Source of the DNA: a virus
Taxonomy: Duplodnaviria > Heunggongvirae > Uroviricota > Caudoviricetes
Strand: one strand, 5' to 3'
IMG/VR virus record: IMGVR_UViG_2737471860_000003
DNA length: 34,370 nucleotides
Shown: positions 3,001-6,000 of the stretch, one piece after another
Layout of the letters: each line of letters starts with the position of its first letter
How positions within the stretch are numbered: the stretch's first letter is position 1
Position numbers: made by a program

Positions 3001-6000
3001 GACTTCTGGGAGTTACGCTCGCCGTTAACAGACAACAGGGCAGAGAACGGTGCTGTCTTTTTCAGTTTGAGAGTGGCGGTGTTATCTGCGTGACCTGGTT
3101 CATCGATAGTACCCAGGTTAAGCACACTGACGGCACGCATATTATCAGCATCGATAAAGCAGCGGGTGCCTTCATCTGCAAGATCTTTAGAATAACGGGT
3201 AAAGTCATCGATGCTGGCAGTGGAAAGCGCACCACGGAAACGGAAGCGATTTAAATTAAATTTTTCCAGATCATGAATGCGGAAATTCTCAGGCAATGCC
3301 ACAGCATCGGCACCAATCTTACTGATAATTTCATTAACACCCTGAGCAGAAATAAGGGCATGGATTTGATTAATTGCGGTTGCGTCTAAGTTCTGAGACA
3401 TAATAAGTCCTCACTATATTAAGATATTCAGTGATGAGATAAATAATCAGGTTATTAAAAACGATATTAATGACCTGCTGCGCGGAGTTTTCCATCAGGC
3501 TCACCGGCAAGAGTCAGTAATTGTCCCTGGTCTTCCTGCAGAATAGTCAGGCGACCACCGCGATTGACATACATCGGCGTTTCGGTGGTGTCTTCTTCGG
3601 AAATTTTCCCGCGGTTAGTCGGGCGAACATATGAGAGTTTATGTTTGATTTTCACACGGTTCTCATCAAATGGTTCGATTTCCAGGTTGAGCGAGACCTT
3701 ACCTTTGGTTTTCGTGTTCATCACACCTGAAGCGACTTCACTGAGAACTGCGCCGATTTTGGTTTCAAATACGCCGCCGTCCAGCTCCCCGATAAATGCC
3801 TGCACATCAGTACTGCGTTCGCTAGCCATTTTGCTGCTCCTCATCATATCGACCCTGCAAGGTCGGTTGGTTTCTCCACAAAACAGAGAAGAACACCTGC
3901 GGTGGCAGCCGCCCGGATGGATTGGGTTATGAGCCCGTCGTCCGGTGATGCTCTTCTCTGTTTTGTAAAAAGAGCGGTACCAGCCGGAGGCAAGTGTACA
4001 AACTGGTACCGCCAAAGCAGTGGCTGTTGTGGTGACCGGTGCTGATCTCCGGCTTGCGGTTATTTCAGACTCTCACGGGCGTTTAATTGCCCCGCCGAAC
4101 AGCTCTTTTCCGCAATAGCTGCAATGTCTTTCGCGCATCAGCCTGCGCATTCACCACAACGCTGAGAGCACTTAGCCAGTTACGGCACCACACTTTGTCG
4201 CGGTTCCATAAATGCCCTCATCGTTGCACCCTGGTCTCTTCCCAGGCGTCAAACCGGATCGCCACGCTGGTTAGGCGTCTTATCAGCATCATCATTGACT
4301 TGCACATTCCGGCTACCTGGTTTGTTTGCCCGAGCAAGGAGTGGATTGTCCCCTTTAACGTCCCCAGACCGCTAACGACGCATGTGCCATACGCCGTGTT
4401 ACAACCAACCTTTCGTTAACAACAGTCTGTTGTTTGTTCAGATAATGATGCTACTAAAAGTAGCAAAAATCAACAACAAAAAGTAGAAGTGTGTATTTAA
4501 TTTTTAGTTTTCTATATAACGTTATGAATTAAAAGGTTTTTCACAGATGGGGTGATGTGGTGTAGTTACGTATAGAAAATATCGAGTGTCTTTTGTTTTG
4601 GTTTAATTATTAGGTTAATTAGATAGTAATAATTTGGGGGAAAATAGTGGGAACTATGGATACAACGGGTCAGGAACAGTGTTATTAAGCAGGCTACGAG
4701 TATAAAACCCGACCGGTTGGTCGGGCGAGAATTATGTTCGTTCTAAATCATGGTTATTGTATTACAGACACTTGACTACTGTTGAAACATCAGATTCTAG
4801 TGCTTCAATTTGTGCTCTATTAGCTTGGGTCGCCATACCATAGATAGTGTAACTCTTATGCTGCAGCCTACTTAAAGGGCATCCCTCATGGTTTATTATT
4901 GCTGCAAGAGTATTACCATCTTTGACATTTTGAACTCTCTCGAAAGTAGCCACATTTGTGAACAGATGAGGATGTGTATTTAACAGGTCATCCGTGATTC
5001 TTTTGATCTCTTCTGCATGTGATTTGAATGCTTTTGCTGCATCACTTTCATTAGTTCTTGAGCGGTTTTGTACGAAAAGGTGTAGTTCAGGTAGTTCGAT
5101 AAGGTTTTGCTTTGCTTCTTTGTTGAAATCTAAGAACATTTCATCTTGTTCTGACTTGTCAATAGACACTCCATAAATAAGTTTAACAAGGTTTTTTATT
5201 CCGCGAATTGATGCAGCATCGGCAGTGCAAGGGATAATTATTCTATTTGCCGCGACTACTCCCAATTCTGTGTAGCTGGCAAAACTTGGATTACAATCAA
5301 TAAAAAATGTTTTTGCTCTGTCAGAGATGTTTTTATCGGCTTCAAAAGATGCTATTAGATCTACCAGCAAAGATCGGCTTTTCTTCCATGCTTCTTTTAC
5401 TGGGGATGAGCCAATGTGAGATATTAAGCGTGAACAGATATCAAGATCGACATCACCAGGAAGAATATATAAGTTCTCTGGCTTTTTTGCATTAACATCA
5501 TGGGCTCGTACAAAGTAAGAAGATTCATTTCCTAAACGAGACAAAGGAGATTTGCTAAAACGCTCCTTGATATAACCTGCGATTGTAACATTTCTGTCTC
5601 GCAATTTATTTAGATTTTCTTCCCCGGTACCATTGCCACCAAGAATAATTTCTGAAACGTTTGATTGAGGGCATGAGTCAATAACCACAACATCTTGATC
5701 CGGATGAGATATAGCAAACTCAACGGCAAGATTATATGTAAGAAAAGTTTTTCCTACACCACCTTTGTTGTTCCATACTAAATATTTTGTATTGGTGGAA
5801 ATCATATCTGCTACCCCATCTGTCGCTTCAGTACGTTCATTAATCATTATCGTATCCTGTTGTATAGAATTGTCTATTATTTATGTTTTATTTTGTGTTA
5901 GTAACGCACCCAAAGATAACATATGGTCTTTATCTTTTATTACTTAGGGTAACAGCTCAGTGTTAATCCATTTTTATGGACCAATGTGCCAAATAAAATT

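Follow-up and report, generated by a model that had tools for sequence, protein, structure and literature searches.

The window analysed here, the whole 34,370-nucleotide stretch of the IMG/VR virus record IMGVR_UViG_2737471860_000003, is a lambdoid prophage of Escherichia coli of the SfV/mEp460/cdtI type, with its early-left operon on the minus strand. DNA 99.5% identical to it carries the PGAP labels XRE-family repressor, ParA-family protein, a gene-free gap of ~930 nucleotides (nt), yfdP, yfdQ and yfdR. The subject of this study is the leader of this operon, from the PL promoter to the start codon of yfdP. An earlier note on the sequence had described it as a leader without an N-sized gene and with possible RNA-based or unusual antitermination, had singled out a palindrome at its 5' end and a long stem-loop before yfdP, and had suggested a put-like RNA, a very small arginine-rich peptide or a processing site as the means of control. 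We find that the apparently empty ~600 bases from PL to the first gene are a string of conserved, folded non-coding RNAs on the minus strand. The features are as follows.

4445 to 4473, minus strand: PL promoter, with -35 TTGATT at 4473-4468, -10 CATCAT at 4450-4445 and 17 nt spacing.
4449 to 4465: operator OL1, 17-bp palindrome TGCTACTAAAAGTAGCA, overlapping PL.
4418 to 4434, minus strand: 17-bp palindrome AACAACAGACTGTTGTT (AACAACAG-N-CTGTTGTT), covering roughly +4 to +20 of the PL RNA as predicted.
4226 to 4403 (about 4408-4215 at its widest), minus strand: module A, a structured RNA of ~180 nt (alignment, RNAalifold, covariance model R1).
4397-4375, minus strand: module A hairpin ACGGCGUAUGGCACAUGCGUCGU, followed by a variable apical insert, the invariant GGUAGCCGGAAUGUGCAAG and the hairpin CACCAGC..GGUU.
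4246-4230, minus strand: boxB-like hairpin CCUGG-GAAGAGA-CCAGG in module A.
4157 to 4226, minus strand: spacer hairpin S1, whose 5' arm CAACGAUGAGGGCAUU (4226-4211) pairs with the 3' arm AAGUGCUCUCAGCGUUG (4173-4157), with a variable insert inside.
4026 to 4160, minus strand: module B, a cloverleaf-like four-way junction (minimum-free-energy fold, covariation, covariance model R2).
4160-4151 and 4035-4026, minus strand: helix P1 of module B, GUUGUGGUGA/UCACCACAAC.
4148-4133, minus strand: hairpin H1 of module B, GCGCA-GGCUGA-UGCGC, followed by a 79-nt variable insert.
4053-4035, minus strand: hairpin H2 of module B, GCCGG-AGAUCAGCA-CCGGU, abutting the 3' strand of P1.
3968 to 4160, minus strand: equivalent of sRNA-17 (module B, linker and terminator), placed by the primers and probe of PMC7719688 Table S2.
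3967 to 4013, minus strand: intrinsic terminator, GGCGGUACCAG at 4013-4003, a 19-nt loop, CUGGUACCGC at 3983-3974, then UCUUUUU.
3870 to 3973, minus strand: module H, with a basal stem of at least 20 pairs (3966-3947/3897-3878) that includes the terminator U-tract.
3865-3850, minus strand: small hairpin CGACCUUGCAGGGUCG with a UGCAG loop; the Shine-Dalgarno (SD) sequence GAGGAG and the yfdP start lie with it within 3827 to 3865.
3829, minus strand: ATG start codon of yfdP.

From 4418 to yfdP this DNA is 97-99% identical in phages with different immunity regions, and its modules recur separately elsewhere: module A in P1/P7 and epsilon15-like phages, module B in the P1-like RCS47 and many others, and the terminator together with module H in SfV, SfIV and ST64B. 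Module B of cdtI and of SfV retains the outer helix GUUGUGG/CCACAAC around a replaced interior. ARAGORN found 0 tRNAs in the window, and the only Rfam 15 matches in the window are C4 and isrK, which lie elsewhere; the leader has no match at E<=10, the tRNA model included. The idea that the leader holds true tRNA genes, which came from BLAST matches beside tRNA-Arg, tRNA-Ile and tRNA-Thr, was dropped on these grounds, the matches being to the flanking modules. Hammerhead, twister and other ribozyme cores gave no Rfam match either, and on inspection the CUGAUG in H1 is not accompanied by the remainder of a hammerhead core. The Pas sRNAs (bioRxiv 2026) are late-region Hfq sRNAs and unrelated to the leader RNAs. 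Prophage CPS-53 of K-12 has kept just 19 nt upstream of yfdP and was of no use for leader transcripts.

As the earlier note had stated, the leader has no minus-strand open reading frame (ORF) of 60 amino acids (aa) or more: the separate ORFs between PL and yfdP measure 49, 39, 36, 26 and 25 aa, none reaching 50 aa, with the caveat that the yfdP frame is mechanically open upstream to a TTG at 4015 (ORF 3467-4015, 182 aa), an extension that covers the terminator and the hairpin. A search on both strands among homologues gave no conserved ORF in the leader; indels are not multiples of three and inserts are replaced. On the + strand, an ORF at 4087-4419 (110 aa) that is labelled a hypothetical protein in mEp460 (gp37) and cdtI (gp40) runs antisense through modules A and B. 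It has no ATG and an Arg/His/Cys-rich translation, is not conserved in homologues and is probably spurious, as judged from the sequence. We also considered a lipoprotein gene on this strand, given that plp of P1 overlaps a copy of module B, and rejected it, since the ORF has no ATG, signal peptide or conservation.

The minimum-free-energy fold of module B in the window is a cloverleaf in which the loops of H1 and H2, GCUGA and UCAGC, are complementary over 5 Watson-Crick pairs and could kiss. Alignment with unrelated phages revealed two invariant blocks around the variable insert, which ranges from 12 to ~230 nt across members, and the family form of H2 is GCCGG-AGAUCAGCA-CCGGC. Covariance model R2 matches the window once, at 4162-4024 (46.2 bits, E = 9e-11; no second copy in 34 kb), and still scores the SfV variant (E = 2.6e-4). 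A scan of IMG/VR with a 26-nt pattern for block 1 returned at least 120 loci with at least 77 distinct sequences. Among the IMG/VR matches listed, block 2, which the pattern does not constrain, stands 39-205 nt downstream in 114 of 135 copies, and the R/Y pair of H1 is G-C in 78, A-U in 7 and mismatched in 0. The H2 stem occurs as GCAGG/CCUGC, GCUGG/CCAGC, GUUGG/CCAAC, GUCGG/CCGAC and GCCAG/CUGGC; P1 of one diverged copy differs by three compensatory pairs (UUGGAUG/CAUCCAA), and in another copy both kissing loops have changed together (GACUGA with UCAGU). When the inserts were cut out of 39 distinct scaffolds, pairing reached 98.4% of cells and two-sided changes were seen at 10 of 22 pairs; 0 of 500 shuffles did as well, and slid controls gave 24-50%. 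Since the search pattern had already fixed the 5' block, the test errs on the conservative side.

The family extends well beyond enterics, its core being present in more than 200 loci of phages and prophages. In species-representative genomes, a scan with a 20-nt core found block 2 in 92 of the 120 matches listed (at least 92 genomes), with hosts including Pseudomonas, Burkholderia, Xanthomonas, Stenotrophomonas, Rhizobium, Gallionella, Flavobacterium, and metagenome-assembled genomes of Coriobacteriia and Phycisphaerales, so that the range runs from Enterobacterales to Bacteroidota, Actinomycetota and Planctomycetota. Throughout, invariant kissing hairpins (GAAUGCGCAGGCUGAUGCGC ... GCCGGAGAUCAGCACCGGC) are combined with a freely covarying closing helix and a hypervariable insert; in non-enteric members P1 can have any sequence and be up to ~20 bp long, and its strands are always complementary. 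The ORFs beside the genomic members are phage genes (DUF2303/YfdQ, RecT, YqaJ, SieB, terminases, an integrase). The 20-mer GAATGCGCAGGCTGATGCGC also occurs, with no second block, inside a conserved protein-coding gene of Xanthomonadales (for example at loci L159, L170, L174 and L210), which accounts for ~15 of the species-representative matches and is a class of false positives for pattern searches. Short-insert members from five loci gave no credible match in Rfam, and a literature search by sequence string and keyword found no description of the module B family, nor anything on decoys of the anticodon-arm kind.

Module B keeps company with tRNA genes. Among the IMG/VR loci listed, tRNA genes within 1.5 kb of a B element are on the same strand as the element in 67 of 67 cases, and for 15 of them the distance is at most 100 nt, a spacing like that of an array (tRNA-Ser at +7 and tRNA-Met at +9, for instance); in RCS47 module B stands 85 nt after tRNA-Thr. 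Its architecture is itself tRNA-like: an acceptor-like helix stacks coaxially on a 5-bp T-like arm, a D-like arm is present, and the D and T loops are in contact, all of this supported by covariation. In two members (loci L130 and L157) the variable insert holds tRNA-like parts, for example a GGTTCGAxTCC T-arm, which recalls the tRNAs embedded in GOLLD. In phage P1 (locus L005) the module B model matches three times in the ban operon, at 1071-1132, 1304-1409 and 1565-1692, on the strand opposite to the plp/upl coding sequences, and the annotation of these may deserve a second look.

We asked whether these inverted arms could instead be DNA-level elements, i.e. sites of recombination or module exchange or single-stranded DNA structures, rather than RNA genes. 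Mosaic breakpoints do fall at the P1 arms of module B, the interiors of cdtI and SfV differing between the same GUUGUGG/CCACAAC arms, and a constant frame around a hypervariable insert is what such a site might look like. But the strand bias of the neighbouring tRNA genes, the tolerance of G-U pairs in one orientation, and the covariation of the loop-loop complementarity all argue for RNA, as does the enrichment of terminators downstream: a terminator-like hairpin follows within 150 nt in 37% of family members against 17-23% of controls, on the same strand only. Moreover, the RNA itself has been detected by strand-specific Northern blotting and by rapid amplification of cDNA ends (RACE). A purely DNA-level role is thus very improbable.

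The detected RNA is sRNA-17, a small RNA of 193 nt from an mEp460-like prophage of E. coli K1 RS218 that was mapped by RACE and seen on Northern blots (PMC7719688). Its primers (CGTTGTGGTGAATGCGCAGG... and AAAAGAGCGGTACCAGCCGGAAG...), Northern probe and RACE primers all map to 4161-3968 of the window with one or two mismatches, and the Northern probe has the + strand sequence, so that the RNA derives from the minus strand. Its 5' end is the first base of P1 (GUUGUGG) and its 3' end, ...GGUACCGCUCUUUU (CUCUUUU), lies in the terminator U-tract. sRNA-17 is therefore module B plus the hairpin 4013-3974 plus the U-tract, which provides experimental support for a working intrinsic terminator. This terminator, a perfect 10-bp inverted repeat that gives a 13-bp hairpin in the fold (-21 kcal/mol), was missed by a simple scan because its loop exceeds 8 nt. 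We found no further convincing minus-strand terminator in 1-3830, which would make it the main barrier in that part of the operon that lies within the window.

The published data also bear on what lies upstream and downstream of module B. The quantitative RT-PCR amplicon opens at the start of A and closes at the end of B, which puts the two modules on one transcript; the fragment which the authors called the promoter is module A plus the spacer (PMC7719688). Reads for yfdP numbered 0.49 in the wild type and 47 in a strain with sRNA-17 replaced by cat (PMC7719688), which fits termination before yfdP. The authors described an ArcA-controlled, trans-acting sRNA with no Rfam homologue, only enterobacterial relatives and no family, expressed in RS218 and in public RNA-seq datasets of avian pathogenic and uropathogenic E. 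coli (APEC and UPEC; PMC7719688). The RS218 locus shares with the window its place in the prophage, the strand, the terminator and yfdP downstream; the window differs in having another immunity region, in which a terminator insulates PL from cI. Of 5426 complete E. coli genomes, 586 (11%) have the sRNA-17 unit in full length and 1590 (29%) have it in part; it is unannotated.

In the twelve homologues of module A that were aligned, invariant blocks alternate with variable inserts. RNAalifold gives a long irregular stem, the hairpin CACCAUC..GAU..GGUG and a hairpin with the invariant loop GAAGAGA on a covarying stem, and 5 pairs show compensatory changes. Model R1 scores 150.7 bits in the window and finds no second copy there. 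In P1/P7 module A fills the spacer between trnI (tRNA-Ile(CAU)) and ban in the ban operon; in epsilon15-like phages it heads a small moron island between the terminase and portal genes; and in O157 typing phage 9 it is followed, after an S spacer, by a genuine tRNA-Arg. In mEp460-type phages it comes after PL, and in SPN1S-like phages after a TTGACA-type promoter-like sequence.

These last positions, and that ahead of ban in the long P1 operon, are where one would look for a put-like RNA that binds the elongating polymerase and takes it through the leader terminator and later signals in place of N. As in HK022, a cis-encoded structured RNA directly follows PL in an N-less lambdoid phage, upstream of terminators, of which the leader terminator is a real one; the sequence blocks of module A are nearly invariant, compatible with recognition by a conserved host machine, and it shares short resemblances with HK022 putL (ACGGCG, the 9-mer CAUGCGUCG, AGCG and AAUG.UGC). 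However, module A is the one element near the promoter that could take a put role, and its model R1 gives no match to putL or putR in the HK022 PL and PR regions at E<=10, and BLAST finds matches of only 8-11 nt. A put site is ~70 nt with two stem-loops and HK022 has them in both early operons (PMC9378689), whereas module A is ~180 nt and present once. Module A also heads very short units, such as A, tRNA-Arg and one small ORF in epsilon15-like phages. In RS218, moreover, a transcript running from A to B is detected, but the RNA stops at the terminator and there is next to no expression of yfdP (PMC7719688), the opposite of built-in antitermination. The put-like RNA of the earlier note is thus unlikely. 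Pairing of B (AGCCGGAG or AAAAGAGCUGU) with the terminator as an antiterminator was also tried and set aside, as the complementarities of 8-11 nt are at chance level and do not generalise.

The spacer that joins A to B belongs to a recurrent type. In many phages, arm pairs of the S1 type (ACAACAGGUAAGAGCAUU ... AGUGCUCUUUCCGUUGU) bracket variable inserts that precede module B or genuine tRNAs. These arms are homologous to those of module H, so that both are the same type of element; in some phages such spacers carry the same core, GGGCUCAUAACCCAAUCC. At many loci, including 4157-4173 here, the 3' arms of spacer and H elements read (A)GUGCUCUUU and are identical to the core of the rrn boxA (UGCUCUUU). 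An rrn-type boxA before module B was considered on this 8/8 match and rejected, as the motif forms the 3' side of the spacer helix, where it is base-paired with an upstream AAGAGCAY arm.

This pairing also bears on the second proposal, that of a cryptic N/nut system in which a tiny arginine-rich leader peptide acts on a site resembling boxA and boxB. The loop of the lambda nutL boxB begins with GAAGA. So does that of CCUGG-GAAGAGA-CCAGG in module A, whose stem covaries around an invariant loop; UGCUCU(U/C) in the S1 arm resembles boxA; and the leader has two small arginine-rich ORFs, of 26 aa (MMMLIRRLTSVAIRFDAWEETRVQR) and 36 aa (ending LLRKRAVRRGN). However, where the window has the 26-aa ORF, every other module A has a different insert of variable length, the 36-aa ORF spans the spacer into the variable insert of B and is impossible in members with inserts of 12-60 nt, and neither has an SD sequence. 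Both ORFs thus sit in hypervariable segments and are not conserved, and no short conserved ORF was found in the leader. The boxA-like UGCUCU is paired and also precedes ordinary tRNA genes, and the boxB-like loop has 7 nt, is not a GNRA-like pentaloop and stands ~60 nt ahead of the boxA-like motif. We consider this proposal hardly tenable.

The long stem-loop noticed earlier is module H. It was correctly placed as an inverted repeat at 3880-3892/3952-3964, but its 13 bp were an underestimate: the perfect repeat is 15 bp (3878-3892/3952-3966) in a structure of ~25 pairs in total. None of 2000 shuffles gives such a repeat, and the fold has a z-score of -6.3. Among 8 homologues 92.7% of positions are paired and 7 of 31 pairs are compensatory, a score reached by 0 of 500 shuffles (slid controls, 36-52%). 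The interior holds a helix CCGGA/UCCGG, a copy of an anticodon stem-loop (CGGGCUCAUAACCC, 3937-3924) and a second hairpin, GCGG-CUGCCA-CCGC. The tip CGGGCUCAUAACCC is identical at 14 of 14 positions to nt 29-42 of the E. coli initiator tRNA metY, i.e. the G-C anticodon stem and the CAU loop; this is the only significant tRNA match in the leader, with weaker matches of H to D-arm and acceptor segments. An IMG/VR scan for H returned 77 distinct versions, with the same arm motif in 74 and a T-run just upstream in 72. In all of them GGAGAAAC(Y)AAC comes next, and after it a small GC hairpin whose loop is GCAG, then an SD and the start codon of a first gene that differs between them. The hairpin with the (U)GCAG loop, standing before unrelated genes, may be a protein-binding or translational control site.

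By fold and alignment, H has the length (a duplex of at least 20 bp) and the conservation of a candidate RNase III substrate. The lambda N leader contains nutL plus an RNase III-sensitive hairpin before the N start, and both leaders have a long duplex shortly before the SD of the gene that comes first after PL, which makes a role of H as a processing site plausible. The window leader otherwise differs: it lacks N and a functional boxA/boxB pair and is not similar in sequence, and H carries the tRNA-fMet anticodon arm and always abuts a terminator. The stem-loop pointed out in the earlier note is a real RNA element, backed by covariation, and may serve as a processing site.

The tRNA connections raise a further alternative, that the modules are functionless relics of a decayed island of phage tRNA genes and spacers. 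Relatives do have genuine tRNAs at the B and H positions, namely the tRNA-Arg after A and S in phage 9 and a tRNA-Met(CAU) 9-21 nt after B in two IMG/VR phages; H holds an exact tRNA-fMet anticodon arm with fainter traces of other arms; and no tRNA is recognised by ARAGORN in the window. Against this, the leader is 97-99% identical across different immunity regions, and compensatory changes keep the helices of A, B and H. The core of B is invariant across bacterial phyla amid varying surroundings, and its RNA accumulates in vivo (PMC7719688). We find this alternative improbable.

Together, these results favour the reading that the PL leader consists of horizontally mobile non-coding RNAs of the tRNA-island type, set as a cassette ahead of the early-left genes, and is not an antitermination leader of the nut or put type; we regard this reading as fairly probable. 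The evidence supports a course in which transcription from PL (or upstream leakage in other immunity types) yields the 5' hairpin, module A, S1 and module B, and most transcripts end at the terminator 4013-3967, leaving as the stable product a 193-nt RNA of the sRNA-17 type, made of B and the terminator hairpin. B would be a tRNA-shaped junction in which P1 resembles the acceptor, one hairpin the D arm and the other, stacked on P1, the T arm, the variable insert replacing the anticodon arm, and its 5' end (4160) would most likely be made by processing of an A-S1-B precursor, as its position suggests and as happens with tRNA arrays. Transcripts that read through would carry H, the GCAG-loop hairpin and the SD as the 5' untranslated region of yfdP. 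H itself would most likely be a duplex that serves for processing or stabilisation, of the RNase III-substrate type, and might also engage, as a ligand or a decoy, some factor recognising the anticodon arm of tRNA-fMet. Of this picture, the promoter and operator, the structures with their covariation, the homologies and, from the published work, the ends and strand of the sRNA are shown; the processing enzymes, read-through as the way in which yfdP is expressed, and whatever A, B and H do are inferred.

Several points weigh against this cassette model. Firstly, the rise of yfdP reads in the sRNA-17 deletion may stem from the inserted cat cassette. Secondly, the transcripts are known from RS218, APEC and UPEC, and since in the window the terminator 4726-4707 isolates PL from cI and the ParA-like gene, expression here may be limited to induction. 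Thirdly, the 5' end of sRNA-17 comes from circular RACE, which does not tell primary from processed ends, and a P1 of 10 bp is off the canonical geometry for RNase P. In addition, with P1 at ~20 bp outside enterics, the likeness of B to tRNA may be architectural only, and the anticodon-arm match in H could be a functionless relic of a decayed tRNA-fMet gene. Finally, a candidate antitermination function, for example in module A, may carry polymerase past the leader terminator after induction.

The comparison with known RNAs places module B near, but outside, the tRNA-like classes. With tRNAs, the T4 stable RNAs (species 1 and 2), the tRNA-like domain of tmRNA and YrlA it shares an acceptor-like helix of 7-10 bp, a joint of 2-3 nt, a D-like arm and a stacked 5-bp T-like arm; its D and T loops interact, as in tRNA, and it occurs within same-strand tRNA arrays. 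It differs in having no anticodon arm but an insert of 12-230 nt, non-canonical loops (GGCUGA and AGAUCAGCA), a P1 of up to ~20 bp and an inconsistent CCA, and it goes undetected by ARAGORN and by the Rfam models for tRNA and tmRNA. In YrlA the T and D loops are canonical, with their order permuted, and the neighbouring gene is that of Ro60 (PMC4201824). Identity of B with YrlA or Y RNAs was thus rejected: loop sequences, order and neighbours differ, with phage genes beside B and no TROVE-domain gene seen. GOLLD and ROOL (Rfam; 10.1101/2024.12.08.627333) are likewise phage-borne and often beside tRNA genes, and some have tRNA-like parts in variable regions, as do the two B members mentioned above, but they give no sequence or model match to B, which is far smaller (60-300 nt) and mainly from Proteobacteria. 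By analogy, the tRNA-like stable RNAs of phage tRNA clusters and the phage RNAs of GOLLD/ROOL type would be the nearest relatives in kind.

A broader proposal, which we put forward tentatively and think possible without thinking it likely, is that B represents a large and, as far as we could establish, undescribed family of phage-borne, tRNA-shaped scaffold RNAs, whose core may be read by a universal host or defence component such as a tRNA-processing or tRNA-targeting enzyme, and that H may act as an initiator-anticodon decoy or ligand, for example against VapC-type nucleases of tRNA-fMet. If true, the early leader would be an anti-defence or host-takeover RNA cassette, the first to be fired from PL.

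The sRNA itself has been published (PMC7719688); its fold, its place in a PL leader, its precursor, the cross-phylum family and the link to tRNA arrays were not described by those authors. What is added here is the fold of sRNA-17, its origin as a terminated PL-leader product and the cross-phylum family to which it belongs, marked by a tRNA-like architecture and a variable insert, as well as a conserved cassette of terminator, H, hairpin and SD with an initiator-tRNA anticodon arm, and a module A common to P1 and epsilon15-like phages. A virulence-associated sRNA is thereby put in context, and the reading of a very common prophage region is altered, as it contains an unannotated sRNA unit over which some phage records place spurious antisense ORFs. 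Two comparatively supported RNA structures, the kissing-hairpin scaffold and the initiator-anticodon hairpin, offer direct starting points for experiments on the RNA biology of phages. The large group of N-less lambdoid phages to which SfV, mEp460, cdtI and Stx2 phages belong must pass the terminator before their recombination and excision genes. The earlier view of the leader is accordingly kept in part: there is no N-like gene, conserved RNA structure dominates and covariation among related prophages is present in A, B and H, but its put and peptide readings find no support. The palindrome and the stem-loop that it had singled out are real without being the key elements; overlooked were the strong terminator, the three conserved structured modules in the remainder of the leader, and the discrete sRNA with a terminator of its own.

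The 5' palindrome exists, but 4 nt away from where it had been placed (4418-4434 and not 4422-4438), and a role as a key element is not borne out. It is only mildly unusual, as 85 of 2000 shuffles (4%) of the 981-nt region yield such a palindrome, it occurs once in the window, and it lies in immunity-specific DNA in which mEp460, Stx2k and cdtI differ in sequence. Candidate readings are a 7-bp hairpin at the 5' terminus of the RNA or a site for a dimeric protein.

The assignment of PL and its operator to 4445-4473 was upheld by the -35/-10 pair, the palindromic operator and a twin operator at cI-cro. The twin, TGCTATTTTAAGTAGCA, lies at 6836-6852 between the cI-like gene and cro and differs from OL1 by one mismatch; half-site-like copies occur at 4474 and 6815, and a second operator-like site spans 4474-4486. 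The -10 context TAGCATCAT is common to PL and PR, and in a near-identical sibling prophage 47 nt of the PL/OL region are 79% identical, in inverted orientation, to the cI-cro intergenic region. The predicted start of PL transcription is at ~4438. Upstream of PL lie the following features.

6075-6833: cI-like repressor gene (HTH_3 and Peptidase_S24).
4765-5847, minus strand: ParA-like ATPase gene (AAA_31/CbiA), between the cI-like repressor and PL.
4726-4707: canonical strong terminator after the ParA-like gene.

The ParA-like gene thus occupies the position of a rexAB-like moron, with its own strong terminator. Its protein has no match in PADLOC, where the sole hit, to Drt5, is insignificant. 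In SfV (locus L257, 1650-2500) PL (TTGACA..TAATGT) is followed by the 98-aa orf33, two annotated terminators, and then a diverged B variant with the same terminator-H cassette, so that this cassette is not always promoter-proximal.

Lastly, the two Rfam matches in the window lie in tandem at 8110-8298 on the + strand, isrK (59 bits) and C4 antisense RNA (82 bits), inside a 387-aa ORF (7750-8913, + strand). A Pfam Phage_ASH match (aa 117-212) covers exactly isrK and C4, and a Rha domain comes next (aa 223-312). The locus looks like the c4/antirepressor control of P1 immI, and from this and the exact overlap with Phage_ASH it may be that the first half of the ORF does not code for protein.

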